Made by a program: the position numbers and the translations under genes. A stretch of 24,197 nucleotides of DNA from a virus (Duplodnaviria > Heunggongvirae > Uroviricota > Caudoviricetes). The notes beneath the pieces are model-generated. The model was not told the origin of the DNA. It searched no databases and saw only the letters and a program-made list of their open reading frames with translations. Positions 1,742 through 21,649 of this stretch are shown here, one piece after another. The DNA is taken from positions 1 to 24,197 of IMG/VR virus record IMGVR_UViG_2619619133_000006. One strand, written 5' to 3'. The number at the start of each line of letters is the position of its first letter. The stretch's first letter is position 1.

Positions 1742-1910
1742 CAAATCATCTACAGGTAACTTTGTAGTCTATACTAACAGGCATACAACTACAGCTGCGC
1801 CTAAGCCAGCAAGCATTCCATCCACTGCTCAAAAAACAAGCAACAATGGCGTCAATGGCTACAGTAACTTTTTAAGTTGCACCACAGGTTCAGTCATAAA
1901 AAACAGTTTC

Positions 1911-1942
1911 TAAAAACAACGGCTCTCTAAGAGCCGTTGTTG
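1911..1942 (-). terminator. Intrinsic terminator hairpin immediately downstream of Q (possibly bidirectional)
   Basis: 10-bp perfect stem caacggctct / agagccgttg (1917-1926, 1930-1939), loop cta; on the minus strand followed by TTTTTAGAAACTGTTTTTT. Confidence 0.5.
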
Positions 1943-1945
1943 TAT

Positions 1946-2323
1946 CTATTCACATTCTAAACGTATATCGAGCATACTAAGGCAACCATCGATAAATCCC
2001 TCAGCCATCTGTATCTCAATGCGTATTAGTTTCTCATCCTTTTTACTAGCCTTGGCGAGCTTTCTTTTAGAGATACCGTATAGGTAATGGGCAACAAGAA
2101 GCGAATGTTCGTCCGGCCTTTTTTGCTTTAGACGAGCAAGACAACCTTCAATAATTAATGCATCACTATCTGAACAAGCCTGACGTGTTTTACTTGTATA
2201 GGGAAGAAGCCCTTTAAACCCAGCAGCTATAGGCGAATAATCTACTCCAGAACTATCACTCGCCGCCCATGCTCCCCAACGCTCCAGAACCATCTGAATA
2301 TCACGCATCAACTTTCTCCACAA
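1946..2323 (-). CDS. Late-gene antitermination protein Q-like (phage 82 / QuuD-type)
   Basis: 125-aa ORF; MRDIQMVLERWGAWAA... N-terminus and size recalled as typical of small Q antiterminators; canonical position upstream of the lysis genes. Confidence 0.55.
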   Translation of the reverse strand: MWRKLMRDIQMVLERWGAWAASDSSGVDYSPIAAGFKGLLPYTSKTRQACSDSDALIIEGCLARLKQKRPDEHSLLVAHYLYGISKRKLAKASKKDEKLIRIEIQMAEGFIDGCLSMLDIRLECE

Positions 2324-2325
2324 AA

Positions 2326-3321
2326 TCAGGCCAGCACACCAATCGCCAGCGCACGATCGATAAAACGAAATATCAGCTCCAGCTGGGAGCCATACTTCTC
2401 TTCAAATGCCACGGTATCCGCATGCAGCTCGTCGTGATGCTTTCTGCACAAAGGCAACACAAAAAGGTCATGCGCTTTTGTACCCATTCCACCCTGACCG
2501 TGGCCTATCAGGTGGTGGGGATCATCAGCGGGCTTTCCACAACATGCACACGGCTGCGTCTTAACCCAGCGCGTGTACTTTTCATTAACCCAGCGGCGAC
2601 GTTTTGGGCGTAACATAAAAGACTCCGGCGACTCCGGCTCCACTTTCAGCGCCAGCACCTTTTTCGCTTTATCCTGGATGATGCTGGTGGCAGGAACCGA
2701 AGGAACAAGATCACTTTCCCGGGTGACAGACGGCACAACAGGCTTCGGTAATCTCAGTGCCTTACGGGCTGCACTTTCCGGTAAGGCATCCGCCAGGTCA
2801 TTACGAACCAGCCACCAGCACAGTTCCGGCATTGTCACAACGTGACTGTCATCAAAACCGAGATCCCGACGCACGACAGACAACACCCAGCTGGCACAGT
2901 TATCCGTTGCCATTGATTCCAGCCGTTCCGTGAACTGATCGCGCAGCTGGTTATCGCAGTGCCAGCACAGACGGATTGCGCCCGGAGCGTGTCGCATTGT
3001 GGTCATGTTCTCGCTGTGCCAGTCGGAATGAGGCCACTGGCAGCCTTTTTCACGAAGTAACCAGCTTTCAAGACATTCCACGCCACCAGCACGACGGATC
3101 ACCGCCTCATTGCGGAACACAGCCCGAACGGCAGGATCATCCGCCAGTGGTTGTAATGCCGCCGGAACGGCACCACTGGAAAAAGATGAATAATGTTCCG
3201 GCTCAGGCTCCAGCAGGACACGCCCCTGCATAAACAGGGGCATCAGCTCTGAACCGGGTCTGAACAATACGATCCCCATACGCGGGGCAATTTCAGGGGT
3301 CAGTAGCGCTCTCACGGTCAC
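2326..3321 (-). CDS. DUF968-family prophage protein with C-terminal Cys/His cluster
   Basis: 331-aa ORF tightly packed between KilA-N and Q. C-terminus CACCGKPADDPHHLIGHGQGG...LCRKHHDELH suggests a zinc-binding HNH-like motif. Family assignment from memory. Confidence 0.5.
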   Translation of the reverse strand: MTVRALLTPEIAPRMGIVLFRPGSELMPLFMQGRVLLEPEPEHYSSFSSGAVPAALQPLADDPAVRAVFRNEAVIRRAGGVECLESWLLREKGCQWPHSDWHSENMTTMRHAPGAIRLCWHCDNQLRDQFTERLESMATDNCASWVLSVVRRDLGFDDSHVVTMPELCWWLVRNDLADALPESAARKALRLPKPVVPSVTRESDLVPSVPATSIIQDKAKKVLALKVEPESPESFMLRPKRRRWVNEKYTRWVKTQPCACCGKPADDPHHLIGHGQGGMGTKAHDLFVLPLCRKHHDELHADTVAFEEKYGSQLELIFRFIDRALAIGVLA

Positions 3322-3322
3322 C

Positions 3323-4126
3323 TCAATGAACGGTATCGAGCAGCTTTAACAGCTCAGGGAATCGGGATTCGAAGAAATGCGGCTGCGTCTCACGCGGATT
3401 TGCAGGACTGGTGATGTTCTTGCCGAACATGCAGCCTTTCGCCGTCAGCGACCAGAATTTTTTAATGTTGTTAATTGCGGTACGGCTGTATCGTTCGCGT
3501 TGTTCAACGATCCCCAGCTTCGCCATCTGGTGATATGCCTGATTAGCCGTCAGGCGGATACCATACTGCTTCAGCAGTGCACTCAGCGCCAGCGTCGGGC
3601 GGCTTGAGCCATCAGGCGCGTCAGCAGGAGCATCAATGGCATAGCGCGGTGCCAGATTCGGTAAGCCAACAGCCTCCTGGAGTTTCTGACAGGCACCAAG
3701 CACAGATGAGTTAGACAGGTTTAACTCCCGACGCATAAAGTCCAGCAGAATCACACCAGCCTGCATCTTGTCAGCAGCCTGCCCGGATAATTTTTCCGGT
3801 GCGCTGGTTACCATATCGAAAGTACGGATCACCTTCAGATGGAATGACGGGCTGATACACATTGCATAGGCATACACCAGTTCTTTGCAGACATACGTCC
3901 CCTGGTTATTTCCGCCACGAATAACGTTAACTGGCTCTATATTGACATTGACCGAGTTGCAAATCTGCAACTCGCTTATTAAACGTTCAGTTTGCTCATT
4001 GCGGAGCCAGAATGCAGGCTTATGCTTATCCAGAGAACCGGCAGCCCTGTGCAGATCGTTCAGGCTGTAACGCCCATAAGCATCACGACGAACTTCAATA
4101 CCATCAATAACCATCAGATTATTCAT
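3323..4126 (-). CDS. KilA-N domain protein (Roi/antirepressor-like)
   Basis: 267-aa ORF; N-terminus MNNLMVIDGIEVRRDAYGRYSLNDLHRAAGSLDKHKPAFWLRNEQTERLI fits the KilA-N/Bro-N signature. Confidence 0.55.
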   Translation of the reverse strand: MNNLMVIDGIEVRRDAYGRYSLNDLHRAAGSLDKHKPAFWLRNEQTERLISELQICNSVNVNIEPVNVIRGGNNQGTYVCKELVYAYAMCISPSFHLKVIRTFDMVTSAPEKLSGQAADKMQAGVILLDFMRRELNLSNSSVLGACQKLQEAVGLPNLAPRYAIDAPADAPDGSSRPTLALSALLKQYGIRLTANQAYHQMAKLGIVEQRERYSRTAINNIKKFWSLTAKGCMFGKNITSPANPRETQPHFFESRFPELLKLLDTVH

Positions 4127-4145
4127 ACTTCGTTTCTCCTCTTAA

Positions 4146-4330
4146 TCAGGCGGCTGCACCCGCCGGTTTCTCGTACTTACTGATAGTGATCTCGACCTTC
4201 CCTTCCGGGATAACCGGTCCCCACTCCACCAGCATTCTTTTCACCTGACTGTCGTCTTCCCACACACCCGCGTGGGTCAGGGCGTCAAACAGCGCCTTGT
4301 TATAGTTGTCCAGATCGCGGATCCGGTTAC
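4146..4330 (-). pseudogene. rusA: RusA-like Holliday-junction resolvase remnant (C-terminal part only, no start codon)
   Basis: Minus-strand frame translates to ..NRIRDLDNYNKALFDALTHAGVWEDDSQVKRMLVEWGPVIPEGKVEITISKYEKPAGAAA*, matching the RusA C-terminal half ([25 protein letters not shown]) as recalled. Frame is closed by TGA at 4370-4368; neither other frame encodes a RusA N-terminus. Confidence 0.5.
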
Positions 4331-4944
4331 AGGGCGATGATTTTTTTCCAGAGCCACTGTGCGCAGGTCAAATCATCCTGCGTTCCCCACTGGCGCTTTT
4401 TAGGGCTGAATACAACCGCATCAGGATGGCGAGTTAAAAAATCCTGTTCATCCGTCTGCGTGTCCGGTTGCGAAGCGTCCGGACGAGAAGTTTTTTTATC
4501 TGACGGATCATGTTTTGATTTTACTGACGGATCCCCGCCAGATTCTGACGGGTGAAAACCCGCTTTTTTGCCAGATTTCGACGCATCAAATTTTGACGGG
4601 TCAGATTTTGATGCGTCAGATTTTGACGGGTCAGAATCTGACAGTTGAGAAAATGCCGCTGCCTGAAGCTTCGCAACGTTAAGCTGATAAACATTCGACG
4701 CATTGCGGTTACCCTGGCGACGCGCCTTACGCGTTAACCAGCCTTCTGCTTCCAGCCGTGCGATAGCCGTTCTGACGGTACTCATCCCCGCGCCAATCTG
4801 GCGGGCAATGGTTTCAATTGATGGCCAGCACACACCTTCGTCATTACTGAAATCAGCCAGGCGGGCCATAACTGCCACGCTGGATAATTTCATGCCTGAT
4901 GCAGCGCAACCATCCCATACATAGCCGGTTAATTTAGTGCTCAT
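4327..4944 (-). CDS. Replication initiator-like protein (N-terminal winged HTH, repeat-rich linker), possibly C-terminally truncated
   Basis: 205-aa ORF; N-terminus VAVMARLADFSNDEGVCWPSIETIARQIGAGMSTVRTAIARLEAEGWL resembles the HTH of phage O-type initiators; central DPSKSDASKSDPSKFDASKS repeats; no helicase-loader gene follows. Confidence 0.5.
   Translation of the reverse strand: MSTKLTGYVWDGCAASGMKLSSVAVMARLADFSNDEGVCWPSIETIARQIGAGMSTVRTAIARLEAEGWLTRKARRQGNRNASNVYQLNVAKLQAAAFSQLSDSDPSKSDASKSDPSKFDASKSGKKAGFHPSESGGDPSVKSKHDPSDKKTSRPDASQPDTQTDEQDFLTRHPDAVVFSPKKRQWGTQDDLTCAQWLWKKIIAL
4498..4644. repeat. About 7 tandem 15-bp repeats (consensus GATTTTGACGGGTCA) inside the replication gene; candidate origin iterons
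   Basis: Copies at about 4517, 4541, 4575, 4589, 4604, 4619, 4634. Period 15 bp (5 codons), so also a peptide repeat. Confidence 0.6.
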
Positions 4945-5155
4945 GACCGACCTCTATTTCCCTGAATTTACGACGAAACTGTTCGAGCGGGCTGAAGCAC
5001 TCATGCTCATAGCCTTCGCGGAGGTAGATAACCCGTTGTGTTTCCGGCTCCCAACGAATGACTCTGACGGGCACTCCGTAGTGATCTTTGAACCAGCGGT
5101 TAACTTGTCGCAAAGGACTGTCTCCTTCTGCCGGTTGAAATCCCCCACAGCCCAC
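4934..5155 (-). CDS. Alternative/overlapping ORF, 73 aa, protein-like
   Basis: [51 protein letters not shown] looks like a folded domain; its stop overlaps the start of the replication gene. May be the C-terminal part of a frameshifted gene with 4954-5292. Confidence 0.3.
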
Positions 5156-5292
5156 TCTGCAAAGCTGTGGGTTACAATTTCCCTGTCACCTGGTACATTC
5201 ACTGCATAGCAATACTCCACCTTCGCTTTTCCACCCGGTACAGGAAGCGCAATCAGTTGCGAGCGACGGTAGTGTGTTGTTAAACTGTTCAT
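4954..5292 (-). CDS. Hypothetical early-region protein (overlaps an alternative frame; possibly frameshifted)
   Basis: Start ATG overlaps the upstream stop as ATGA (5292-5289), suggesting coupling. The N-terminal half looks protein-like; the C-terminal half is low-complexity. Confidence 0.3.
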
Positions 5293-5840
5293 GCGTTAGT
5301 TTCTCCACAGTCACGACACGCCACGGCGCCCGGAGCTGCACACTCGCGGGCGTCATTACTTTCTGAAATGCAAAAAATTTTGTAGACCAGTGCTGCATGC
5401 TCCTGCAGCTTCGAAATTGAGAGGTACAGCTCATCGTTAATTGCTGTCTTCTCATGCGGTTCCACTACACCGTCTTCAATTGCTGAACGAATCTGTTTTG
5501 AATAACTGCCGATCTGTTCAATGACTTCCAGCAGACGTTGGTTGATATCGGCGTTGTCCACATCCTCGACATCAGGAAGAGACACAAAGACGCCATTTGC
5601 AGACTGCGCCACAGCGTCAGCAATGAAGTGAGTTCCACCAGCACGTTGTAAAATCATTGCCCATCCCAGCGGGAAAATTTGATCGCCATCGGCACGAAGG
5701 CGATTAAATAATGCGTTCTCTGTTACATCCAGCCAGTCAGCTGCTTCAGCGTAACCCCCCGGCAACGCTGCGATAGTTTTTCTGACAGCTTTCACGTACC
5801 ACTCAGGCTGTTTTTCTACTTTCCAGTGATGCTTACCCAC
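5289..5840 (-). CDS. Hypothetical early regulatory protein (in the CII/YdaT position)
   Basis: 183-aa ORF directly downstream of the Cro-like gene with an overlapping start. Assignment by position only. Confidence 0.4.
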
Positions 5841-6093
5841 GGTTCACCTCCTGTTCCTGTGGTTTAAACCCATTCTGGTTTTGGCTAGATTGAAAACGTG
5901 CCGGATAAAGAATCTGCATTTCGCTGACTTCACCCTTAAAAAAATTGGCTAAACGTTCTGCAAGCTCGATAGATGGAATCTGCTCCAGCCTCTCAATACG
6001 ACTCAACGTCGCTGGATTGACTTGAACACCCGCAGCAACATGCTGCAAAGTGAAACCATGCGCCTTACGCACATTTCGTAATGGTGATTGCAT
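5833..6093 (-). CDS. Cro-like HTH (XRE-family) regulator
   Basis: 86-aa ORF divergent from the repressor gene; HTH segment HGFTLQHVAAGVQVNPATLSRIERLEQIPSIELAERLANFF; GGAGGG RBS upstream. Confidence 0.6.
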   Translation of the reverse strand: MQSPLRNVRKAHGFTLQHVAAGVQVNPATLSRIERLEQIPSIELAERLANFFKGEVSEMQILYPARFQSSQNQNGFKPQEQEVNRG

Positions 6094-6107
6094 ACGCCCT
6101 CCAAATA

Positions 6108-6170
6108 TTGCGCGTTATGCATGTTATTTCACGCAATTATTTTGCGCAAGTTGATTTGCTTATCACGCAA
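6108..6170. promoter_or_regulatory. Right operator region (OR-like) between cro-like and cI-like genes
   Basis: TTGC-N7-GCAA at 6156-6170 (perfect), TTGC-N7-GCAT at 6108-6122, palindrome TTGCGCAA at 6142-6149; lies in the 97-bp divergent intergenic region. Confidence 0.45.
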
Positions 6171-6190
6171 TAAAGAAATGTAATAAACGC

Positions 6191-6883
6191 ATGAACATAG
6201 GAAACCGAGTCAGACAACTTCGCCAAGCGAAGAACATGAAAATCGCCGATCTCGCTGAAGCAATAGGAGTAGATGCGGCGAACATCTCGCGCTTAGAAAC
6301 GGGTAAGCAAAAACAATTTACCGAACAAACACTGAGTAATATTGCCAAGAGCTTAGGTGTTGATATTGCTGATCTCTTTACCTCTGCCCACAAAAGTAAT
6401 ACTGTATATAAAAACAGTAATGATGAGGATGTTGCGCAGGTGAAGGATGTGTTCCGTATTGAAATGCTGGATATCAGTGCCAGTGCGGGAAATGGCCTTA
6501 TCCAGGGCGGTGATGTCATTGATGTGATTCATGCCATCGAATACAGAACTGATAATGCTGTATCAATGTTCGGCGGACGACCAGCCAATCACATCAAAGT
6601 TATCAACGTTCGTGGGGACAGTATGTGTCCAACCATTGAGCCAGGAGATCTCATCTTCGTTGATGTCAGCATCAATCAGTTTGATGGTGATGGTATATAT
6701 GTCTTTGGTTTTGATGACAAAATATACGTTAAAAGACTTCAAATGATTCCTGACAAACTGCTGGTGATTTCTGATAACCAGATTTACCGTGAATGGGGAA
6801 TTACTAGCGAAAACGAACACCGATTCATGGTCTTTGGAAAGGTCTTAATCAGTCAGTCGCAAACCCTTAAGAGACATAATTAA
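6191..6883 (+). CDS. CI-like prophage repressor (N-terminal XRE HTH plus C-terminal S24 LexA-like autopeptidase)
   Basis: 230-aa ORF; HTH IADLAEAIGVDAANISRLETGKQ; S24 motifs GDSMCPTIEPGDLIFVD and IYVKRL (Ser/Lys dyad); divergent from the cro-like gene. Confidence 0.8.
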   Translation: MNIGNRVRQLRQAKNMKIADLAEAIGVDAANISRLETGKQKQFTEQTLSNIAKSLGVDIADLFTSAHKSNTVYKNSNDEDVAQVKDVFRIEMLDISASAGNGLIQGGDVIDVIHAIEYRTDNAVSMFGGRPANHIKVINVRGDSMCPTIEPGDLIFVDVSINQFDGDGIYVFGFDDKIYVKRLQMIPDKLLVISDNQIYREWGITSENEHRFMVFGKVLISQSQTLKRHN

Positions 6884-6901
6884 CCTCAATATCCTTCCAT
6901 C

Positions 6902-6923
6902 GGCCACCGAAAGGTGGCTTTTT
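6902..6923 (+). terminator. Intrinsic terminator after the repressor gene
   Basis: Stem ggccacc / ggtggc with GAAA loop, followed by TTTTT. Confidence 0.6.
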
Positions 6924-6936
6924 ATTACCTATCAAT

Positions 6937-6973
6937 TTGCATATTCCGCAAATATCACTTGCATATCTCGCAA
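6937..6973. promoter_or_regulatory. Left operator region (OL-like): two TTGC-N7-GCAA sites
   Basis: Perfect TTGC-N7-GCAA at 6937-6951 and 6959-6973, centres 22 bp apart; same core as the OR sites. Confidence 0.45.
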
Positions 6974-7159
6974 TTTAATTTTATCTTTTGTTCCAGACCA
7001 ACTACAGGATTACAACAAAATCTGGTTGCAACACGGTGCATGTGTCGTAAGCAGTCAGTAAATGTCAAAAACGAACAGGCAGGACGCCCACGAAGTAGCC
7101 GCCTGGGGCATATGAAGTCCAGGATGATTCGTTGAGTCATGTTGTGCCACTAGGCACTC

Positions 7160-10630: not shown

Positions 10631-10980
10631 TGGAGCCATACAGCCTCACACTCGATGAGGCCTGTCATTTTCTCAAGATATCCAGACCGACTGCCATTAA
10701 CTGGATACGCACAGGGCGTCTTCAGGCAACACGCAAAGATCCCACTAAGAATAAATCTCCTTACCTCACAACACGACAAGCCTGCATTGCGGCGCTTCAG
10801 TCTCCGCTGCATACTGTCCAGGTGAGCGCGGGTGATGGCATAACAGAGGAAAGAAAATGTCACTCTTCCGCAGAGGTGAAATATGGTACGCCAGTTTCAC
10901 ATTGCCGAACGGTAAAAGATTTAAACAGTCTCTTGGAACAAAGGACAAAAGGCAGGCGACAGAACTCCATGACAAGCTAA
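10630..10980 (+). CDS. Excisionase-like (Xis/AlpA-type HTH) protein; C-terminal extension overlaps int
   Basis: Starts at the ATG overlapping the upstream stop; N-terminus [33 protein letters not shown] is Xis-like and sits immediately upstream of int. The last ~40 codons overlap int and look non-protein-like. Confidence 0.4.
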
Positions 10981-12020
10981 AGGCTGAAGCATGGCGGGGC
11001 AGCAAACTTGGTGAAATACCTGATATAACGTTCGAGGAAGCGTGTGTCAGGTGGCTTGAAGAGAAAGCACATAAAAAATCACTGGACGATGACAAAAGCC
11101 GGATCGGATTCTGGCTTCAACATTTCGCAGGAATGCAACTAAGAGACATTACTGAATCAAAAATTTATTCAGCAATGCAGAAAATGACGAACCGGCGTCA
11201 TGAGGAAAACTGGAAACTCAGGGCAGAAGCATGCAGAAAAAAAGGGAAACCTGTTCCAGAATACACGCCAAAACCAGCGTCCGTTGCAACGAAGGCTACG
11301 CATCTTTCATTTATAAAGGCCCTACTAAGAGCCGCAGAGCGTGAATGGAAAATGCTGGATAAGGCACCAATTATTAAAGTGCCTCAACCAAAGAATAAAC
11401 GGATCCGCTGGCTGGAGCCCCATGAAGCACAAAGGCTGATTGATGAATGTCCGGAGCCATTAAAGTCTGTTGTTGAATTTGCACTGGCAACAGGCTTAAG
11501 ACGCTCGAACATCATCAACCTTGAATGGCAACAAATAGATATGCAGCGCCGGGTGGCATGGATAAACCCAGAAGAGAGTAAATCAAACCGCGCAATCGGC
11601 GTTGCGCTGAATGATACTGCATGTCGCGTTTTGAAAAAACAAATCGGGAATCATCACCGTTGGGTATTTGTGTACAAGGAAAGCTGTACCAAACCAGACG
11701 GAACGAAAGCGCCAACAGTAAGGAAGATGCGGTATGACGCAAACACAGCCTGGAAAGCGGCGCTGAGACGGGCTGGTATTGATGATTTCAGATTTCACGA
11801 CTTGAGACACACCTGGGCAAGTTGGCTGGTTCAAGCCGGAGTCCCGTTGTCAGTGTTACAGGAAATGGGAGGCTGGGAGTCTATCGAAATGGTTCGTCGA
11901 TATGCTCACCTTGCACCTAATCACCTTACCGAACACGCACGGCAAATAGACTCGATCCTGAACCCATCGGTCCCAAATTTGTCCCAGTCAAAAAATAAGG
12001 AAGGTACTAATGATGTGTAA
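10857..12020 (+). CDS. int: Tyrosine integrase, P22 Int / DLP12 IntD type
   Basis: 387-aa ORF; N-terminus [34 protein letters not shown] recalled as the P22/DLP12 integrase family; catalytic motifs [11 protein letters not shown] and MVRRYAHL; 10 bp from the tRNA-Thr core. Confidence 0.85.
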
Positions 12021-12048: not shown

Positions 12049-12196
12049 GGAGTAAAACACTCGATTAATCTCGTGTTAATGCCATCACCTACGACCATTA
12101 CTAATTGATTGAATCTTATAGAAAAAATCATCATTTTCTATGCATTACAATCAATTTTCACATTACAAACGCTCCGACACTTTAGCCGGGGAGTTT

Positions 12197-13474
12197 ATGA
12201 GATACAAGCCCAATCAATACATAATCTGTGATTCTTACGGTAACTACTATTTGAGGATCACGTTGCCTGTGTATATGCAGCCCTTTTTTGAAGGAAAAAG
12301 GACGTTTGTCAGGAGTCTGCATACAAGTAACCTTCGTGTTGCACGTAGAAAGCGTGATCAGATTGCAGATGAATACCATTGTTTACGGGAGAGTGTCGCC
12401 CCTGTAAACAGCACAATAGAGAACACGCTGGAACTGTTACGCAGTAAGGCTAAATACGCCAAAACAGCTACCAGAATGCAAGATACAGCGTCTTCGTGTC
12501 CGTCATTGCTTAAAATTCTTGAAATCTACCTGACAATTAACAGCACGAAGAAGAAGCCAGCCACTTTAGCTAAGGCAAGAAAAGCGGTAGAGATGTTTCT
12601 CTCCTACCGTAAAAAGCCTGATATTGCATTGCAAGATGTGAGCCGCACCACTGTTACAGGCTGGATTGAACACATGCAAAAAACCCTTTCACAACAATCA
12701 ATTGCAAATTATATCAGCCCAATGGCCCAGCTATGGGAGTTAGCTTCATCACGTTACCACGATGCGCCAGAAAGGGCGCTCTCCCCCTGGCGAGGGCATA
12801 GGCTTGATGTGGCACAAAGTAGAGAGAGCTACGAGGCATTTTCTAACAAAGAGCTATTGCAGGTGTTGCAAGTATTTTCCGGTAATTCAGCAGAAAACAA
12901 AGAAATGATGGCTTTGTGTCTTATCGGTGCTTATACAGGTATGCGGATCAATGAGATAGCAAGTCTCACAATAGACGATGTGAAAGAGATCGAAGGTGTG
13001 CTGTGTTTTGAAATCACACAGGGAAAAACGAAAGCTGCGGCACGTGTTGTGCCTGTACATAGCCTTATCACTCCGTTGGTGTTGTCGCTGCGTGAAAAGC
13101 CTCATAATGGCTTTTTGTTCTATCACGCCAGCATTACAGAGCGTGCTGATGGTAAACGTTCCACGTGGCACACGCAGAGATTTACAAGAGCTAAACGAAA
13201 GGCTTTAGGGGAAAAGGGAACAGAAAGGAAGGTGTTTCATTCTCTGAGACACGGAGTAGCACAGCTTCTTGATCGAAATCAAATTCCAGAAGACAGGATC
13301 GCCCTTCTCCTGGGCCATACACGCGGTAATACAGAGACATTCCGCACATATAGCAAGAATGCAGCTTCTCCAGTAGAGCTTAAAAACTATATTGAGCTTC
13401 TACGCTACCCTGAAATAGAGAAAGGCTTATCAATCAATAAAAAATCAAATTTAAGGCGTAAAACAACGCCATAG
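12197..13474 (+). CDS. Tyrosine integrase (second, unrelated family)
   Basis: Likely start at the internal ATG with GGGGAG RBS (track ORF begins at 12140). Catalytic motifs HSLRHGVAQLL and ETFRTYSKN; N-terminus NGNYYLRITLP typical of integrase arm domains. Confidence 0.75.
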   Translation: MRYKPNQYIICDSYGNYYLRITLPVYMQPFFEGKRTFVRSLHTSNLRVARRKRDQIADEYHCLRESVAPVNSTIENTLELLRSKAKYAKTATRMQDTASSCPSLLKILEIYLTINSTKKKPATLAKARKAVEMFLSYRKKPDIALQDVSRTTVTGWIEHMQKTLSQQSIANYISPMAQLWELASSRYHDAPERALSPWRGHRLDVAQSRESYEAFSNKELLQVLQVFSGNSAENKEMMALCLIGAYTGMRINEIASLTIDDVKEIEGVLCFEITQGKTKAAARVVPVHSLITPLVLSLREKPHNGFLFYHASITERADGKRSTWHTQRFTRAKRKALGEKGTERKVFHSLRHGVAQLLDRNQIPEDRIALLLGHTRGNTETFRTYSKNAASPVELKNYIELLRYPEIEKGLSINKKSNLRRKTTP

Positions 13475-13481
13475 ACGCAAT

Positions 13482-13520
13482 AAAGAGGCTTCAACATAGA
13501 TTGGTAGCCTCTTTTATAAT
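13482..13520 (+). terminator. Hairpin with a weak T-tract after the second integrase
   Basis: aagaggct / agcctctt stem with 15-nt loop, followed by TTTATAATT. Confidence 0.35.
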
Positions 13521-13555
13521 TACATCGTTACAGAGCGTTTTAGAGGCATTTACGG

Positions 13556-14269
13556 CTATTCCTGTTTAAAGGCAGGAGTAATAGTGTCTTCACCTTCACT
13601 ACTAGATTTTTCAGTGTTAACACGTTTTTTCATATTAGCCCCGATGTTCTTAGATGGCTGTGTTTTGATAGCTACAGTGTTTACAGTGCCATAAGACACT
13701 AATCTTATTTGCTCAAAGCTAAGATCAAATACCAGAGATTCGCTTGCCTCTTCTGTGTATTCGATGCCTGTTAAAACAACGTTCTCAAAAGTTTTATTTT
13801 CTGTAACAAGAAGAAAAGGCTGTCTACTGTCCATAATCTGATTCAGGTAGTCGATAGCTAATGATCTTCTGTTCCCGTTCACCCCTGCACTCTTTAACAA
13901 GCCAGGATCGCTTTTAATCGGTGTTTCAGTGATCCTTCCCTTAAGAGAAAACTTATTGTTTTTAATTTGAACGTGATCAGACACAGTAGCACCATTCTCT
14001 ACGGGGTAGCTTGTGACATCTGCCGAACGTCTCACGTTCACATCATCTACACTGTCAAAGGCCAGTGCCATATAATTTTCATAAACGTCATTGCCAGAAG
14101 ATGCCAAGCCACTTGTAACAATAGCAAATCCATTCTCTCCTTTTGTTTTATTAGCTTTGCTATTTTCGTTTTTTGTAGAGTTTATATCTTGTTCTGCTTT
14201 GTAAACAGCCTGAACGTGTTGTTCTGGAGTATTTGCTGCACGTATGGTTAAAATTCCCGCCGTTGCCAT
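13556..14269 (-). CDS. Hypothetical protein (virion-protein-like composition)
   Basis: 237-aa ORF with AAGGAAA RBS; rich in N/S/T/G; last gene of the minus-strand cluster, facing the integrase. Confidence 0.4.
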   Translation of the reverse strand: MATAGILTIRAANTPEQHVQAVYKAEQDINSTKNENSKANKTKGENGFAIVTSGLASSGNDVYENYMALAFDSVDDVNVRRSADVTSYPVENGATVSDHVQIKNNKFSLKGRITETPIKSDPGLLKSAGVNGNRRSLAIDYLNQIMDSRQPFLLVTENKTFENVVLTGIEYTEEASESLVFDLSFEQIRLVSYGTVNTVAIKTQPSKNIGANMKKRVNTEKSSSEGEDTITPAFKQE

Positions 14270-14290
14270 AATAATAATTTCCTTGTAATG

Positions 14291-16132
14291 TTATGGCGGA
14301 AATTCCCCGCCGTTAGATTGTCCTGATAAGCTGGTTAATGTTAATGATTTCAAGAAGCTATCCCGACTTGCTCTCGCTGTAAAATCCACATAATCGCTTA
14401 ATCTTGATGTGTCACTATTAATAGTAAGCGGAACCTCTGTTACCACTTCAAATGTAGGATTCAGATTAAACACAGGAGATAAATTATAAGCCGGAGTTGT
14501 CATTGCAAGATTATTTAAAGCACCCTGTTTGAGATTGGTTATCGGTGCTTCATTGACTGACATTTTTACATCTGACACAGAAGATTTATCATCGAAAAGC
14601 AATCCCTTAATCGTGTTAAAGAGAGAATGACTATTATCAGGTGTAGTTGTTGCAGTGCCAGCGCCTTTATATTGATCAGGAACGAGATTAGAAAGATTCT
14701 GTTTCATTCCGTCATTGCTTAATGGCGGTGCATCACCTAAATTTTTCTGAATAGCCTCTGTCTTATCATCATTACGATTAAACCAGTTTACAATCTTCAT
14801 AATAGCTTCAAAGAGACTTCCTACAGCTTCTCCCAGCTTCGTAAAATACGGAGTGAGATTAGAAAGGTTTTTCATAAACTCTTCCGTTACTTTTGGATCG
14901 AGAGATTTCATAAAGCCATCAACAAAGGCGATCCCTTGTGAGTCAGAAAGCCCACTAAGTGCATTATTCAGTTCACGGAATTTAATAACGCTTTCCTGTT
15001 GTGCCTGTGTTACCCAGCGCCCTGATTCTCGTTGTTCTCGTGCTGATTGTTCCACTTCTTTAGCGGAGCGTGTCCAGTATTTAGAGGTGAGCATCAAATC
15101 ATCAGCCAGATCTTCCAGACGACTACCGATCTGCGCATCTGAATAGCCCTTTTTCACCATTCCATTGACAGCTTTACTAACCAGACCAGCCGGATTATCA
15201 GCAAAGTCTTTTAAATCTTTCTTAGTTAAGAAACCTTCGTTAAGTAAAGTATTAATACCTGAATCGCCGCCCTTCCATTCGCCTCGGCCTGTTTTCTTAT
15301 CAACTACATATTCAGCTTCATCATAAGATTTGGTTGCACGTTCACGCACATCTTTCATCTGATCCAGATACTTGCGACGACCTTGATCCCCCATCATTGA
15401 ATCAACGCCGTTTTTATACGCCCATTGTTCAATATTGTTCATCTGGTTAACATCTACACCGCCCAGCTTCGCACGGCTATACAATTCACCCAGCGTTTCA
15501 GCGTTAGCGAAGCTGTTAGCCATAAATTCAGAGGTTTTACTAACAGCCATCACGCCAGCAGCAGCCGTAGCGCCTCCAAATAACAGAGCGCCCATAGTGG
15601 CGGAATTCCCTGATCCTCCCTTAACGGGGGCTAATTGTGCTTTTCTGTTGCCATTAATTTTACGTTGTTGCTGTTGTAAGCGTTTCATCTGGCTATTCAT
15701 ACGTGCAAGCGAGATAGCGCCTTGTTCGTATTGTTTGGCTATCTCACGCGCCTGTGCAATAGCTTTGTATTGTTCCGCTACAGAGAGGCGGTGCATTGCA
15801 CTGATAGAGCTTGAAACATCAAGGAGCTTTAACTCTGCTTTCTCTTTACGTGCTGCTATTTGTGCCTGTTGCCTTGCCTGTGCTCTTGCTGCGGCAGCTT
15901 GTGCTTTTTGATTCTGTTTTTCGTTTTTCGCTTTTTGCTGGGTAATCTTGTCTACTTCACTTTGTGCTTTCTTATAGCCTTTAGTGACACTATCAAACCT
16001 TAATTTAGCTGGCTTGATATTTTCTGTGAATTCTTTTAGGCTTGTAATAGAGTCTTTCGCTTTTTTCAAGCTGTCTTTATCTACACTAAATGTTACTGTG
16101 TTCTTAATTTTAGAAGTGTTAATTTCTAACAT
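14291..16132 (-). CDS. Large hypothetical protein with N-terminal coiled-coil/low-complexity region (structural or ejection-protein-like)
   Basis: 613-aa ORF with GGGGA RBS; N-terminal KAKNEKQNQKAQAAAARAQARQQAQIAARKEKAELK; no catalytic motif recognised. Confidence 0.45.
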   Translation of the reverse strand: MLEINTSKIKNTVTFSVDKDSLKKAKDSITSLKEFTENIKPAKLRFDSVTKGYKKAQSEVDKITQQKAKNEKQNQKAQAAAARAQARQQAQIAARKEKAELKLLDVSSSISAMHRLSVAEQYKAIAQAREIAKQYEQGAISLARMNSQMKRLQQQQRKINGNRKAQLAPVKGGSGNSATMGALLFGGATAAAGVMAVSKTSEFMANSFANAETLGELYSRAKLGGVDVNQMNNIEQWAYKNGVDSMMGDQGRRKYLDQMKDVRERATKSYDEAEYVVDKKTGRGEWKGGDSGINTLLNEGFLTKKDLKDFADNPAGLVSKAVNGMVKKGYSDAQIGSRLEDLADDLMLTSKYWTRSAKEVEQSAREQRESGRWVTQAQQESVIKFRELNNALSGLSDSQGIAFVDGFMKSLDPKVTEEFMKNLSNLTPYFTKLGEAVGSLFEAIMKIVNWFNRNDDKTEAIQKNLGDAPPLSNDGMKQNLSNLVPDQYKGAGTATTTPDNSHSLFNTIKGLLFDDKSSVSDVKMSVNEAPITNLKQGALNNLAMTTPAYNLSPVFNLNPTFEVVTEVPLTINSDTSRLSDYVDFTARASRDSFLKSLTLTSLSGQSNGGEFPP

Positions 16133-16147
16133 TTAAAATCCCCCTTA

Positions 16148-16351
16148 TTAATCATTTTTACAACCTTCTTTACTTAAGAAATGGTGTAGAGCCTGATCAA
16201 TACTCTCGTTTAATCTGAACATACGGGCTTTTACTCCTTCATATGGAACATCTAAGAGAGAACATAGATATTTCAGATTTAACAAGCCTCTAGAATCATT
16301 AGCATCTAAATGTACGTGGACACCATTTTTTGATTTCAGAATCACTTCCAT
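16148..16351 (-). CDS. Small hypothetical protein
   Basis: 67-aa ORF with GAGAGGTGA RBS immediately after the A19 terminator. Confidence 0.35.
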   Translation of the reverse strand: MEVILKSKNGVHVHLDANDSRGLLNLKYLCSLLDVPYEGVKARMFRLNESIDQALHHFLSKEGCKND

Positions 16352-16373
16352 ATTTTAATCACCTCTCAAAATT

Positions 16374-16420
16374 AAAAAAAAAAAAAAAAAAAGGCGAAGC
16401 GTGAATACACGCCACGCCTC
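16374..16420 (-). terminator. Strong intrinsic terminator after the capsid-like gene, with a 19-nt homopolymeric T tract
   Basis: On the minus strand: hairpin ggcgtggcgtg-tatt-cacgcttcgcc (about 10 bp, one mismatch) followed by T19 (A19 on the plus strand, 16374-16392). Confidence 0.6.
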
Positions 16421-16436
16421 TATTACACGTTAAATA

Positions 16437-17465
16437 TTATTTAACAGTGATTTGAACGGAGAAGCCTACACCGTGGTTTACAACCATCTGGCTATTCTCT
16501 GTAACAACGTTAACAGCATCACCACGAGAAGATTCATAGCTATAGCTGTAAACCTCAGTAGGAGCGGCATTAATCAGTTCAAAGGTGCTGGAAGCAGCCC
16601 CGTAGATGTTCTGATATACGTTAGAGCCTTTAGCGAATTTAGGCACAGCTACAGCGTCTGCGGTCATATGTGCAAGGTGTAGCGGATCTACCAGTTTAAC
16701 AACATCAATGTTAGTTCCTGGAATAGTGAACGCTGTCACCCCTGGCAGCAGGTCACGACGCTGATACACAACGTTCCCTTCTTCCAGTGGGCTTACATAC
16801 TGGAATGCGTTTGCCATACCCGCAGAGAATCGAATTGCAGAGAAGGCTTCCGGCTTACAGAAAACAACAATACGCTCTACAGCAGCCGCCTGGCTTTGTG
16901 CTTTCTCGATAATGTCAGTAGCAATCTGATCAAATTCTTTAAAAATCTTCGTGGTGTCAGTGCTGGAAGCGTTCACAGTGGCTTTCATAGCTGATACGTT
17001 AAACAGCTTGCCCCACTCGATAAGAACATCATCAGTTTTAGGCGTGTAAGTTTTGCCAGAGAACAAAGAAGCCGCCAACACGCTCTCTTTAGTGCGCTGA
17101 TACGCTACGTGGTGTTTAGCAACATAGTCAGCATAGATATCAGTGAGTGTTTCCTGGAAATCAGTGCCAGGTTTACGTTTGCCTTGAACATCAGAAGGAC
17201 GGATCACATCTTCACGAAGAAAATACGGGATTTCAATCAGCCATTCTTTACCTTGTTCTCGCTTAGTAACGTTGTGTTCAGAAGAGAAACGAGAGGTTTC
17301 TTTGTTAAAGAGAGATTCGTTGCTTTCGACAAGCTGGGAAACAGCTACTTTATGAGAACTAACGCCCACCGGATCAGTGAAGTCGAGGGTAGAGAGCAGA
17401 TAGTTTCTAGTGCTATGAGCCTGGAAAAGCGGAGCTAAATCAACGTAATCATTACCTAGAATCAT
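16437..17465 (-). CDS. Putative major capsid protein (local similarity to T7 gp10-type capsid protein)
   Basis: 342-aa ORF. VERIVVFCKPEAFSAIRFSAGMANAFQYVSPLEEGNVVYQRRDLLPGVTAFTIPGT parallels T7 gp10A ADRVFYCDPDSYSAILAALMPNAANYAALIDPEKGSIRNVMGFEVVEVPHLT as recalled. Size, strong terminator after it and operon position fit a highly expressed structural gene. Confidence 0.45.
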   Translation of the reverse strand: MILGNDYVDLAPLFQAHSTRNYLLSTLDFTDPVGVSSHKVAVSQLVESNESLFNKETSRFSSEHNVTKREQGKEWLIEIPYFLREDVIRPSDVQGKRKPGTDFQETLTDIYADYVAKHHVAYQRTKESVLAASLFSGKTYTPKTDDVLIEWGKLFNVSAMKATVNASSTDTTKIFKEFDQIATDIIEKAQSQAAAVERIVVFCKPEAFSAIRFSAGMANAFQYVSPLEEGNVVYQRRDLLPGVTAFTIPGTNIDVVKLVDPLHLAHMTADAVAVPKFAKGSNVYQNIYGAASSTFELINAAPTEVYSYSYESSRGDAVNVVTENSQMVVNHGVGFSVQITVK

Positions 17466-17483
17466 TTATTATTATTCCTTTTA

Positions 17484-17846
17484 TTAAGAAGTGAAAACAG
17501 AGTGGAACCCTTCAAGCTGGAAGCCTTTTTTAATTAATGCTGTTTTTGCTGCTTCACTTACAGCATTCAGCGCATCAGCTTTGATGCAGACAAGCCCAGC
17601 ATTGCTACGTAGCACATCTACAGGCTTGTTGTCTCCAGCCGTTAAAAACTCACTCATAACAACATAGATATCATCTCCTGATTCATATTTAGCGCCAGTG
17701 CTTGTGATCAAGTCGCCGCACTCAACATCAGCAGGAAGAGAAGCAAAAACCTTGCTTTCTACAGAGGCAAACGGATCAGTACAATAACTTACAATATCTG
17801 TGAAAGTCTTTCGAACTGGAAATAGAGTGTCTAAATCAATAATCAT
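17484..17846 (-). CDS. Hypothetical protein upstream of the capsid-like gene
   Basis: 120-aa ORF overlapping the upstream stop (ATGA). Confidence 0.4.
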   Translation of the reverse strand: MIIDLDTLFPVRKTFTDIVSYCTDPFASVESKVFASLPADVECGDLITSTGAKYESGDDIYVVMSEFLTAGDNKPVDVLRSNAGLVCIKADALNAVSEAAKTALIKKGFQLEGFHSVFTS

Positions 17847-18055
17847 TTAGTAATCTCCTTAGCTTTTAATTTGATTAATTCATTAAGGGAAGGTGTAGAC
17901 GGAGAAGAAGGAGAAAAATATTTTTCAACACATCTTTCTACTTCCTCGACAGAACACCCAGCGTATTTAGCTACCATTTCGGTAATTTGTGGATTAATTT
18001 TCAGCATTTCATCTTTATACTTGATGATTTGCTCTTTATCATTTAAGAACAACAT
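17843..18055 (-). CDS. Small hypothetical protein
   Basis: 70-aa ORF, first gene after the 18.06-18.39 kb intergenic region. Confidence 0.35.
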   Translation of the reverse strand: MLFLNDKEQIIKYKDEMLKINPQITEMVAKYAGCSVEEVERCVEKYFSPSSPSTPSLNELIKLKAKEITK

Positions 18056-18329
18056 TTATATAAACCTTGTTACCTTGTTTAAAGTAAGAAATACAACTTT
18101 TAAGTTGCATAACGGGCAAAATAAAAGGCAGCATTTAAAGCCGCCTTTGTAATTACCCTATGTTATGCACACTCCAAGATGTATGCATAACAAAGGAAAA
18201 AAGAGGTAATAATGACACAGTATTTACTTAAGGAGGAGAAGCGGGGAGCGGAGATTTTACTCCCCTTTAACGACAAGAAGAATTTTTAATATCGAACCAA
18301 TAAAGGAAAAATAATCACCCCATATAATT

Positions 18330-18358
18330 ATATTAACATACAATAGATGGAATGTCAA
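18330..18358 (-). promoter_or_regulatory. Candidate sigma70 promoter for the capsid-containing operon
   Basis: Minus strand TTGACA (18358-18353), 17-bp spacer, TAATAT (18335-18330). Downstream palindromes CAACTT-TT-AAGTTG (18095-18108) and TTATGCA-N14-TGCATAA (18163-18190) could be operators. Confidence 0.35.
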
Positions 18359-18387
18359 GATATTTTACAACTTTTTTGTTGCTTTTT

Positions 18388-18726
18388 TTATTCTTCTGTG
18401 ATAGTAGCGCCTAAGCGTTGAGCTAGTTCAACAAGTCCGTCTCCTACATAGCGAACGTCCGATTCAAGACCTTCTATCCAGTTTGATAGCTCCCATAGCT
18501 GAGCCGCTGTCAGATATGCGTTCTCACGCTTACAGAGCATCTCTACACGCTTAGAGAGGTGCTCAAAGGCATTCACAGCTAAATCCCAGTGTTTAAACGC
18601 CTCATTTAGTGCCGCTGGCGTGTTTTCTTTGTATGCTTCAAGTTCAGCGCGGTTTAAAGGCAGGAGGTAATCATCCTCATAATAATTAATTAGTGAATAA
18701 ATTGTGTCATACGTGTTTTTGTTCAT
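18388..18726 (-). CDS. Hypothetical protein
   Basis: Likely start at the ATG at 18726 (GGAGA RBS, 2 nt after the upstream stop) rather than the track start at 18753; about 112 aa. Confidence 0.4.
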   Translation of the reverse strand: MNKNTYDTIYSLINYYEDDYLLPLNRAELEAYKENTPAALNEAFKHWDLAVNAFEHLSKRVEMLCKRENAYLTAAQLWELSNWIEGLESDVRYVGDGLVELAQRLGATITEE

Positions 18727-18727
18727 A

Positions 18728-19138
18728 TTAAAAGTCTCCATAGTGATCAACATTATCTAGAATATGGAATTCTGGGACTAAATTATTTAGGCCATTTGTG
18801 GCGAGATAACCAACGTAGTGGTTATAGTCTTCAAATCCTAAAATCTGGTATTTGCGGAGTTCGTCAGAACTAACAATATACTCTTTTCTTTTTCTAGGTT
18901 TCCAGAATACACCAGGTGTTGAAGATAAGATTTCTTGTAATGCGTTAAATTCATCTCCACAAGGCACAGAGGGAGAATGTTCTATGATCTCTGTTTTCCA
19001 TTCGCCAGGGGCGCTATTTTGCTTGGTGAGCGTAACTAGCTCTTTAAAGTCTTTACGTCTTAGAATAGATTTAGGTTTACTTAGAAGAGAAGCTGAATCA
19101 CCGATTTTCTTAACAACGTTGTTTTTTCTTTTTGCCAT
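18728..19138 (-). CDS. Hypothetical basic protein
   Basis: 136-aa ORF; lysine/arginine-rich N-terminus MAKRKNNVVKK. Confidence 0.4.
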   Translation of the reverse strand: MAKRKNNVVKKIGDSASLLSKPKSILRRKDFKELVTLTKQNSAPGEWKTEIIEHSPSVPCGDEFNALQEILSSTPGVFWKPRKRKEYIVSSDELRKYQILGFEDYNHYVGYLATNGLNNLVPEFHILDNVDHYGDF

Positions 19139-19270
19139 TATTTACTTTTCCTTTTCTTTTAAAGGAAAACACCCCGAAGTATGTTTCTAACGTGAGAAAG
19201 AACAATAACCAATACATAGCTACTATCATAATAATGTTTTCCTTTTATATTTTAATTACATAGAGAGATT

Positions 19271-19546
19271 TTAGAGAGTGGAATAGATGAATTCTACTTT
19301 ATCTAGTCTTTTGAGATTGAATGTAGAGAAAGATAATTCTTTAATCTCTATAACACCGAAATTTGATAGCTGTCTAAGCCAGAATTTTAAACCATCTTCA
19401 GAGCAAGCTGCTCGATGTAACACATCGCTATATTTTAGCGGTGTTGGCTTTCCTTTATAGAGGTAAGCAAGTGTTTCGTAGATGCGTTTTCCTGTGTCAT
19501 TACACTGAATTCTGTCTACTTGATTTTTTACTAAATATTGAATCAT
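19271..19546 (-). CDS. Small hypothetical protein
   Basis: 91-aa ORF in the operon. Confidence 0.35.
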   Translation of the reverse strand: MIQYLVKNQVDRIQCNDTGKRIYETLAYLYKGKPTPLKYSDVLHRAACSEDGLKFWLRQLSNFGVIEIKELSFSTFNLKRLDKVEFIYSTL

Positions 19547-19557
19547 AACCCTCCTTA

Positions 19558-20247
19558 TTAAAATGGAATATCAAAGTCTTCATATACTTTGGGATGTTTC
19601 TTAGCAAAATATGCCTCAATACCATTTGGTAGCTTTAACCTGTGCTTATAGGCTAACGATGTTGCAAATTCTATAAAGGATGCCCCTCCTGTTCTGGTAT
19701 TCTTCTGCGTGATAATAAGAGAGGCAAAATTCTCTAACACATCCTCCTCATTATCATTAGCTACCTTTTCATTTGATGAAACAGGTGTTTCTTCCATCTC
19801 CCAGGGTAAAGGCGTATCCCAATCATCAAGAACATCAAAAGAAGGCTGTTTATGGCCTTTAGGTTGTTCCTGTGCTTCTTCTGCCTCAGAAAGATCAGAG
19901 AGTGATGATTCTCCTGGGGGAGTAATATGTGCATCTGTGAGAGGGAGAGCATTGTAAATCAAAGATGAAATATACGGATCAGGATGTGGGGATGTTTCTA
20001 ATAATCCCATCTCTTTAAGATCGTTTATCTTACGTTTAATTGTTGACGCTGAAGACTTAAAAATCTTAGCTAATGTTTCGTGACTTTCATAACAATTAAG
20101 GTTGTTTTCCTGATAACTAAGGAATCGAAAATAAAGCACAATATGTAATAGTTCTAAATCTTTTCCTTGAGGGAATTTATCAGAATAAATCTTTGATACA
20201 TTATCAAACGTGTCATAGTGTTTTGTAAAAGTTAGTTGATTAATCAT
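19558..20247 (-). CDS. Putative DNA-binding / replication-initiator-like protein (N-terminal winged HTH, acidic linker)
   Basis: 229-aa ORF; LELLHIVLYFRFLSYQENNLNCYESHETLAKIFKSSASTIKRKINDLKEMGLLE resembles the HTH of phage/plasmid initiators; lies near the iteron region. Confidence 0.35.
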   Translation of the reverse strand: MINQLTFTKHYDTFDNVSKIYSDKFPQGKDLELLHIVLYFRFLSYQENNLNCYESHETLAKIFKSSASTIKRKINDLKEMGLLETSPHPDPYISSLIYNALPLTDAHITPPGESSLSDLSEAEEAQEQPKGHKQPSFDVLDDWDTPLPWEMEETPVSSNEKVANDNEEDVLENFASLIITQKNTRTGGASFIEFATSLAYKHRLKLPNGIEAYFAKKHPKVYEDFDIPF

Positions 20248-20298
20248 TAAAAATCTCCTTATAAATCACGCTTAATGCGCTACTAAAGTGAATGAGGA

Positions 20299-20466
20299 TC
20301 ACTTACCCTTTTTTTGTTTGATGTTCTCTGCTGCTTCAGTAATGATTTCTAACATCAAATCACTGACCATAATTTGCCTTTTCTTGGCTTCAGCAAATAA
20401 AACCTTGAAGATTTCAGGGTCAACGTGTAGGTAAGTGCGCGGAATTGGTTTCTTAGTTTCGCTCAT
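20299..20466 (-). CDS. Small protein (55 aa), possible DNA-binding regulator
   Basis: Below the ORF-track size cutoff. ATG at 20466-20464 with AGGAGA RBS; MSETKKPIPRTYLHVDPEIFKVLFAEAKKRQIMVSDLMLEIITEAAENIKQKKGK; a beta-strand-then-helix pattern is compatible with ribbon-helix-helix, which is uncertain. Confidence 0.3.
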   Translation of the reverse strand: MSETKKPIPRTYLHVDPEIFKVLFAEAKKRQIMVSDLMLEIITEAAENIKQKKGK

Positions 20467-20485
20467 AGTTTTCTCCTTCTATTCT

Positions 20486-20674: not shown

Positions 20675-20784
20675 AAAAAACTCCTTATTCAGTTAAAAGA
20701 AAAAACACCTTGCAAGCCTGACGGCTTCAAAGTGCATTGATTTTGATTATTTAGAGAAGAATGTTTTCTGTCCCTCTAATACCT

Positions 20785-20813
20785 ATTATTACATATAAAG
20801 AAACATTTGTCAA
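20785..20813 (-). promoter_or_regulatory. Candidate sigma70 promoter facing the 62-aa gene
   Basis: Minus strand TTGACA (20813-20808), 17-bp spacer, AATAAT (20790-20785). Confidence 0.3.
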
Positions 20814-21617: not shown

Positions 21618-21649
21618 AGAGAGAGTTACACATAAGCAATCAGTATGAT

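Follow-up and report, generated by a model that had tools for sequence, protein, structure and literature searches.

A replication origin lying inside the gene for its own initiator is our favored explanation for a repeat array in a 24,197-nucleotide (nt) stretch of viral DNA (Caudoviricetes; IMG/VR record IMGVR_UViG_2619619133_000006, positions 1 to 24,197), referred to here as the window. We put at roughly 70% the probability that region 4489-4646 of the window serves an e14/SfIV-type temperate phage as its replication origin, placed in the part of the initiator gene that encodes the linker between an N-terminal DNA-binding domain and a C-terminal domain. The gene (minus strand, 4327-4944) is taken to encode a replication initiator because its N-terminal domain matches the HTH_36 family, its product has an O-like match in the PHROG database, and it is positioned after cro and a cII-like gene. 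Near-invariant synonymous sites, one repeat copy kept in a shifted reading frame, and repeat sequences that co-vary with the predicted recognition helix together point to a cis-acting, initiator-binding array and not a mere peptide repeat. The original prediction, made from the DNA letters, had proposed an in-gene origin like that of lambda O/ori, and these three lines of evidence support it; we infer that the initiator binds the repeats, that replication starts there, and that the neighboring block of GATC sites and A+T-rich DNA has a role.

Where do the repeats lie, and how far do they depart from chance? Five tandem units, presumed iterons recognized by Tandem Repeats Finder (TRF), a search for repeat families, and motif statistics, fill 4572-4646 (4572-4586, 4587-4601, 4602-4616, 4617-4631, and 4632-4646). 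TRF describes 4572-4635 as 4.3 copies of a 15-base pair (bp) period (81% matches, score 86) and also as 2.1 copies of a 30-bp period (88% matches, score 100). The 15-mer GATTTTGACGGGTCA, with up to three mismatches allowed, matches the plus strand at 4541, 4574, 4589, 4604, and 4619; on both strands together there are 6 matches against 0.6 expected, a count that none of 100 shuffles reached. Shorter copies, (T/A)CTGACGGAT, are found at 4499-4508 and 4523-4532. About seven 15-bp copies had been claimed at 4498-4644, and this number is borne out by TRF and the motif statistics: we count seven in 4499-4646, namely five tandem units at exactly 15 bp and two to three degenerate or dispersed ones. 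Five places in 4501-4633 match the palindromic core TGAYSSRTCR, as does one further place in the 24-kb window (10 strand-matches versus 1.2 expected; 0 of 100 shuffles did as well). In the translation of the minus-strand open reading frame (ORF) the repeats encode the peptide SDSDPSKSDASKSDPSKFDASKSGKKAGFHPSESGGDPSVKSKHDPSDKK, and the encoded sequence runs SDSDPSKSDASKSDPSKFDASKS...DPSVKSKHDPSDKK.

On the coding strand, the unit is TCTGAC-NN-GTCAAAA, with inverted 6-mers TCTGAC and GTCA(G/A)A and with dyad axes both inside each 15-bp unit and between units. The tandem series, which is preceded by TCAGATTCTGAC, contains TCTGAC-CC-GTCAAAA, TCTGAC-GC-ATCAAAA, TCTGAC-CC-GTCAAAA, and TTTGAT-GC-GTCGAAA. 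A variable 14-bp spacer (4558-4571) separates the tandem array from a distal iteron copy at 4538-4557 (TTTCACCCGTCAGAATCTGG on the coding strand), which is identified from the sequence, the comparison of homologues, and the 15-mer match, and after which comes GGGGATCCGTCAGTAAAATCAAAACATGATCCGTCAGATAAAAAAACT. The distal copy is part of a conserved 72-bp block (4489-4560), evident in the codon table of 81 homologues, that also holds two further CCGTCAG copies. Two GATC sites, the target of DNA adenine methylase (Dam), can be read at 4506-4509 and 4530-4533, 24 bp apart. Next to the iterons, a candidate unwinding element is the 40-mer at 4490-4529 (68% A+T), which has the lowest stability of any in the gene, -47.7 kcal/mol (z = +1.9 relative to 1900-7000 in a nearest-neighbor scan). 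By-eye inspection of the conserved block for DnaA-box or integration host factor (IHF)-like matches gave nothing convincing. An antisense terminator-like hairpin at 4549-4562 was set aside as a chance feature: it falls in the variable spacer and is unconserved in the alignment.

Are the repeats maintained as DNA or as protein? We addressed this with ~90 homologous loci from the Enterobacterales, comprising nine phage loci and 80 genomic loci (one genome per species) from genera that include Shigella, Citrobacter, Kosakonia, Enterobacter, Kluyvera, Buttiauxella, Yersinia, Pantoea, Rahnella, Proteus, Providencia, Erwinia, and Edwardsiella. An account in terms of protein alone, which we consider extremely unlikely, would make the repeats a slippage-prone, low-complexity peptide linker (D-x-S-K-S) whose similarity at the DNA level stems from recent duplication. 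The linker is indeed rich in Ser, Asp, Lys, and Pro and looks flexible, and copy number changes by whole units, as replication slippage would give; however, the synonymous sites of the repeat region are near-invariant over ~80 species in which those of the N-terminal domain are scrambled. In 81 genes with a median N-terminal-domain nt identity of 69%, the codons of conserved N-terminal residues have a mean normalized entropy of 0.81 and a mean top-codon share of 0.54. The corresponding values for the 24 linker-block codons that cover the distal copy and the GATC sites are 0.15 and 0.94 (Mann-Whitney p = 8.5e-13). Within this block, Ser is encoded by TCA in 45/45, 67/67, 68/68, and 59/59 cases at four positions, Glu by GAA in 64/64, and Val by GTA in 75/77, while a single Gly wobble is the only position that varies freely. 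The Asp codons that create the GATC sites are GAT in 81/81 and 67/67 genes and never GAC, in contrast to the Asp codons of the tandem units (GAC 222, GAT 56). Conservation at the first, second, and third codon positions is 0.84, 0.89, and 0.53 in the N-terminal domain but 0.82, 0.81, and 0.80 in the block, an equality that reads as the signature of non-coding constraint. The bias extends to the tandem units, where TCA encodes 291 of the 343 Ser residues in [D/E]-x-S (versus 91 of 794 Ser codons in the N-terminal domain) and AAA encodes 243 of 244 Lys residues (versus 249 of 429).

Two further observations are hard to reconcile with a slippage-prone linker. First, one copy has been retained in another reading frame. 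In phage P27 and in one genomic locus (L079), the distal copy is read in a shifted frame, owing to the loss of 1 nt in the spacer and the gain of 1 nt farther on, after TCTGG, so that the peptide becomes LTLQNLDP or FTRQNLTP (the latter in L079) in place of HPSESGGD. The DNA of that copy, GTTTTCACCCGTCAGAATCTG, is nonetheless identical at 21 of 21 positions between L079 and the window, whose N-terminal-domain proteins are only ~60% identical. Second, the symmetry of the units is visible in the DNA and not in the peptide. The middle residue of the peptide repeat is free (A, P, T, G, R, or V) while the flanking nucleotides are fixed, and the TGA...TCA arms are invariant around centers that vary or flip (CCCG 54, CGGG 10, CCCC 10, GGGG 7). 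In a subfamily from Erwinia, Edwardsiella, and Morganella (subfamily B), TTGACCCCTCAA (I-D-P-S-N) alternates with TTGAGGGGTCAA (V-E-G-S-T) at a 15-bp period; the two are exact reverse complements and encode DPS and EGS, so reverse-complement-centered units specify different peptides. In subfamily A only the central dinucleotide flips and the flanks stay unchanged; the symmetry argument therefore rests on free or flipping centers between fixed palindromic arms and not on inversion of whole units. Such a combination is predicted by a symmetric dimer site and by no peptide-level model. Taken as they stand, the codon and frame data indicate that the repeats are conserved as DNA, not as peptide.

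Could the constraint act on RNA, or on a second gene in the same DNA? We regard it as very unlikely that the conserved nucleotides serve an mRNA structure (one that stabilizes the RNA or pauses translation between domains, for instance) or an overlapping gene. The 166-nt RNA of the region does fold well, at -53.2 kcal/mol compared with -30.7 for shuffles (z = -6.6), and 85% of the cells of the structure can pair in 22 gap-free homologues. However, this pairing (85.1%) is no better than the mean obtained with shuffled partners (85.6%; 482 of 500 shuffles were as high), so the fold is a by-product of the palindromic repeats. Covariation also fell below that of the shuffles, most of the best-conserved stretch (GATCCGTCAGTAAA...GATCC) stays unpaired in this structure, and an Rfam scan returned only sub-threshold matches to microRNA hairpins. 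An overlapping gene is excluded by stop codons, which interrupt the other coding-strand frames in 81/81 loci and the three antisense frames in 45, 75, and 81 of 81.

If the array is bound by the initiator, the repeats and the DNA-binding domain should change together, and they do so in the subfamilies that we could compare. Subfamily B carries a different 15-bp unit, TTGA-SSSS-TCAA, and its predicted turn/recognition helix reads GAKSKTTVSAAI as opposed to GA-GESTVRTAI, with a one-residue insertion and a different wing; this co-variation of iteron and helix comes from two to three subfamilies only. The N-terminal domain and the repeat DNA also travel as one module, which is joined to at least three unrelated C-terminal domains (the SfIV, Phg_2220_C, and P27 types). 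Because these domains begin right after the conserved block, the block might be no more than the crossover point between N- and C-terminal modules, homogenized by recombination and without a role in replication. We hold this to be quite improbable: recombination yields mosaic joints and not fixed third codon positions in ~80 species, it leaves unexplained both the 15-bp periodic palindromes and the co-variation with the recognition helix, and a conserved origin would itself produce such a crossover point.

How consistently do the repeats accompany the gene? A repeat linker follows directly after the N-terminal domain in every full-length homologue, and repeats are present in 76 of 76 full-length homologous loci, with a median of four strict TGA-N4-TCA sites. 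Across these 76 loci the density of such sites is 11.4 per kb in the linker versus 0.36 per kb in the other 365 kb, and the spacing from one site to the next is exactly 15 bp in 146 of 222 cases. Repeat-number variation, which the original prediction had offered as a check, is seen among the homologues as one to nine units per gene (most commonly four or five) in 15-bp steps; close Klebsiella and E. coli phages, for instance, have alleles of 939, 954, 969, and 984 nt that differ by whole units. Nor are the repeats absent from functional relatives: phage SfIV, which has been induced, plaque-purified, and propagated (PMC3851460), has a repeat region identical to that of the window. Sequence from this region is carried by 2,733 of 5,426 complete E. 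coli genomes and by many prophages in Shigella, Klebsiella, Citrobacter, Yersinia, Proteus, and Providencia.

What, then, is the array for? An alternative that we consider fairly unlikely grants that the initiator or another protein truly binds the array but gives it a regulatory task (autoregulation, a roadblock to transcription, copy-number control by array pairing, or Dam/SeqA-dependent timing) and lets replication start elsewhere. DNA-level conservation and palindromic anatomy reveal a cis-acting protein-binding array but not its job, and this alternative also draws on the modest character of the A+T-rich element and on the two invariant GATC sites, which, together with a DNA adenine methylase gene that 47 of 80 homologous loci have within 2.5 kb on the downstream side of the initiator, hint at methylation-linked control. 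We nevertheless favor an origin over a regulatory array because the motif is absent from the promoter region, the array sits at a domain boundary, and an easily melted stretch with GATC sites flanks it. A motif scan of the 24-kb window did not find TGAYSSRTCR in promoter or operator regions, and its near confinement to the array implies that the array is not a set of promoter operators. No other repeat array was found in the prophage early region by TRF and the repeat-family search. The boundary between the DNA-binding and exchangeable C-terminal domains, moreover, is the position of the proven origins in lambda and P22.

In the origin model, the N-terminal winged-helix domain, probably as a dimer, would bind the array of 15-bp iterons, each an inverted 6-mer pair (TCTGAC-NN-GTCARA), with five in tandem followed by the spacer and the distal copy. 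Opening of the duplex would take place at the conserved block, where the least stable stretch and both GATC sites lie, and recruitment of the host replication machinery would fall to the exchangeable C-terminal domain. Early-right transcription (cro, the cII-like gene, the DUF4222 gene, and then the initiator) would run through the site, as it does at lambda ori.

Several points count against an origin at this site. The A+T-rich element is modest, since 100-bp windows in the gene never fall below 45% G+C, and it is weaker than the AT-rich region of lambda. The units are 15 bp long and abut directly, whereas the iterons of lambda and P22 are ~20 bp. The lambda-O family Phage_rep_O (PF04492) is not among the Pfam matches at E <= 0.01 for the window protein or for its homologues from SfIV, phiNP, YeP1, and P27, for which HTH_36 scores best. 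With a DnaC-like gene in just 4 of 80 loci, most relatives have no adjacent gene for a helicase loader, and the strong RNA hairpin potential described above (z = -6.6) remains on this side of the ledger, though without covariation. In the literature searched we found no experiment on this initiator family and no paper containing the repeat motif; the paper on the SfIV genome mentions a replication module without naming an origin (PMC3851460). A search for any description of this origin (SfIV/SfV, iterons, e14 oweE/ymfN, and the motif) found none, within an incomplete coverage of the literature.

The conserved block raises a further possibility. It is kept nucleotide for nucleotide across Enterobacterales phages that differ in their iterons and C-terminal domains. 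We suggest, tentatively and with more doubt than conviction, that the origin is bipartite, with subfamily-specific 15-bp iterons beside a shared 72-bp block that serves as a methylation- or SeqA-gated unwinding element or as a landing pad for a host factor; its two invariant GATC sites and the frequent adenine-methylase neighbor of the initiator would fit it for such a task. It is an equally doubtful extension of this idea that the block may constitute a so far undescribed "universal" origin core shared by phages without a helicase loader ("initiator-solo" phages).

How does this arrangement compare with known replication systems? Lambda O, P22 gene 18, and phage L gene 18 each have their own distinct iterons inside the coding region (PMC8022706), and the O gene and ori of Shiga toxin (Stx) phages have been described (PMC7466680). 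As in lambda, Stx phages, P22, and phage L, the predicted origin lies in the initiator gene, in the linker between the N-terminal DNA-binding domain and exchangeable C-terminal domains. Further resemblances to lambda-type origins are the presence of several iterons, each with its own dyad symmetry, a place in the early-right operon after cro and cII, and iterons that differ between phages together with the N-terminal domain; the DNA promoter-distal to the iterons is also A+T-richer, though only modestly so and not strikingly on a 100-bp scale. The N-terminal domain differs from that of lambda O in being of the HTH_36 (PF13730) type. Lambda also differs in that the 72-bp block with two invariant GATC sites is common here to subfamilies with different iterons, and in that a P/DnaC-type loader gene usually does not come next (P27, besides the four genomic loci, has a DnaC-like gene); in comparison with lambda, the origin described here is a prediction from sequence. 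The window initiator is thus best viewed as a putative functional analogue of lambda O, not as a member of the Pfam lambda-O family (PF04492).

The replisome organizers of Gram-positive phages, such as SPP1 G38P with oriL and those of lactococcal phages, also have an in-gene origin arrangement. The resemblance to DnaD-like organizers consists of a winged-helix N-terminal domain that binds repeats in its own gene (a binding that is predicted here) and of weak DnaD_N matches (17-21 bits, E = 3e-4 to 5e-3, below the Pfam cut-off of 27 bits). PHROG families named "DnaD-like helicase loader" (E = 2.7e-29) and "replisome organizer" cover portions of the full-length protein. Differences lie in the hosts, the repeat sequences, and the C-terminal domains. 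Iteron plasmids offer a third comparison: their Rep proteins are winged-helix initiators, and P1 oriR has repeats that contain GATC. Both systems combine a winged-helix initiator with iterons in tandem and, beside these, an unwinding region with GATC sites (a candidate one here), but plasmid iterons lie outside the rep gene. Pfam gave no Rep_3 match for the window protein or the homologues tested, and the plasmid records that carry this initiator gene look like phage genomes or fragments. An autonomous plasmid replicon built on this initiator was considered and rejected, as the plasmid search returned mainly phage-sized or chromosome-sized records. One E. coli record, NZ_CP148542.1 (L091), a 16-kb circular "plasmid," carries a 53%-identical initiator homologue; it was rejected as evidence of plasmid replication, since it holds only lambdoid early, nin, and lysis genes and is probably a mis-assembled or excised phage fragment.

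The in-gene arrangement is already known from lambda, and here it is most likely seen in a different, uncharacterized initiator family, one that is widespread and whose origin is so far unmapped in the literature searched. The result supplies a testable origin, with coordinates, a half-site consensus, and a conserved 72-bp core, and it is a clean case in which the nucleotides of a coding region, not its amino acids, are under selection. For annotation, it cautions that repeat linkers should not be dismissed as disordered filler, and for engineering, that recoding or codon-optimizing such initiators may destroy an origin. A decayed prophage that retains the origin could, moreover, be replicated in trans by a related superinfecting phage.

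Such decay is evident in the window itself. The repeats do lie in an initiator-like gene, as had been claimed (HTH_36, PHROG 391), but that gene is not intact and stops after codon 205. From the ORF list, nt identity, and PHROG 391, 4327-4944 (205 codons plus stop) corresponds to the first 205 of 313 codons of SfIV gp41, or the SfII "O protein," and has 98-99% nt identity, across 617 nt, with genes of the plaque-forming Shigella phages SfIV and SfII and of several E. coli phages that are annotated as replication protein O or primosomal protein. Codons 1-97 (4654-4944, minus strand) encode the winged-helix domain that is the presumed iteron-binding part, with HTH_36 (PF13730) at residues 22-70 (Pfam E = 1.8e-11) and further matches to winged-helix families of the GntR, PaaX, and MarR type and, weakly, DnaD_N. 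The full-length, 313-amino acid (aa) SfIV homologue matches PHROG 391, "replication initiation O-like," from end to end (E = 1.6e-135).

After codon 205 the ORF ends in ..WLWKKIIAL* and the sequence jumps into rusA, of which a 3' remnant occupies 4146-4316 on the minus strand (the last 56 codons, 4149-4316, plus stop; Pfam RusA E = 7.6e-11, profile positions 81-123 of 124); the junction lies at approximately 4317-4334. Intact initiators in SfIV and E. coli A1_181 continue for 108 more codons; PerC and a LexA-like gene come next, and A1_181 has rusA after them. In all 12 of the complete E. coli genomes with the best coverage, 1,251 query bases span 2,435 record bases, and the initiator-rusA junction is found in 0 of 5,426 complete E. 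coli genomes. By this comparison the window carries a ~1.2-kb deletion that removed the C-terminal domain of the initiator (108 residues), PerC, and the LexA-like gene. As the C-terminal 108 residues are missing, the origin in this window is probably silent unless a related phage supplies the initiator in trans.

Truncations and fusions of the initiator have arisen many times independently in E. coli, among them a 138-aa HTH_36+RusA protein and fusions to DUF968, and a protein search with the N-terminal domain returned almost only truncated or fused E. coli fragments. At one locus (L063) the initiator is fused to a terminase, a fusion that we read as the e14 OweE type. Deletions in decaying prophages thus often end in the replication gene.

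The genes around the initiator form an early-right lambdoid operon on the minus strand, beside a cI-like repressor gene on the plus strand (6191-6883). Upstream of the initiator, all on the minus strand, are genes for a Cro-like protein (5833-6093), a cII/YmfL-like protein (5289-5840), and a DUF4222 protein (4934-5155; E = 3e-19); further downstream lie genes for a KilA-N protein, a DUF968 protein, and a Q antiterminator. The RefSeq name of the neighboring gene in E. coli is ymfL, a gene that in E. coli K-12 belongs to the e14 prophage, and on that basis we class the prophage as e14/SfIV-type. A 112-aa ORF without a Pfam match (4954-5292, minus strand) overlaps the DUF4222 ORF (4934-5155) in another frame, and in SfIV a 112-aa gp40 is annotated at the matching place. 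Of these overlapping ORFs upstream of the initiator, phage records and RefSeq do not annotate the same one.

A second, A+T-richer element (12140-24197) comes directly after the prophage integrase (10857-12020). Besides an integrase of its own (12140-13474) and a resolvase (23060-23599), it encodes a Dit-like tail protein (13556-14269), a capsid E protein (16437-17465), and a second, borderline HTH_36 protein (19558-20247; E = 1.8e-5), and it looks like a small phage-like or satellite element. Beside its HTH_36 gene, A+T-rich non-coding DNA at 20906-22257 contains tandem repeats with units of 10 bp (three copies, 20906-20935), 22 bp (4.3 copies, 21931-22025), 23 bp (2.8 copies, 22085-22148), and 18 bp (3.1 copies, 22200-22257). 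These may represent an iteron origin outside its initiator gene, in contrast to the in-gene array of the prophage.

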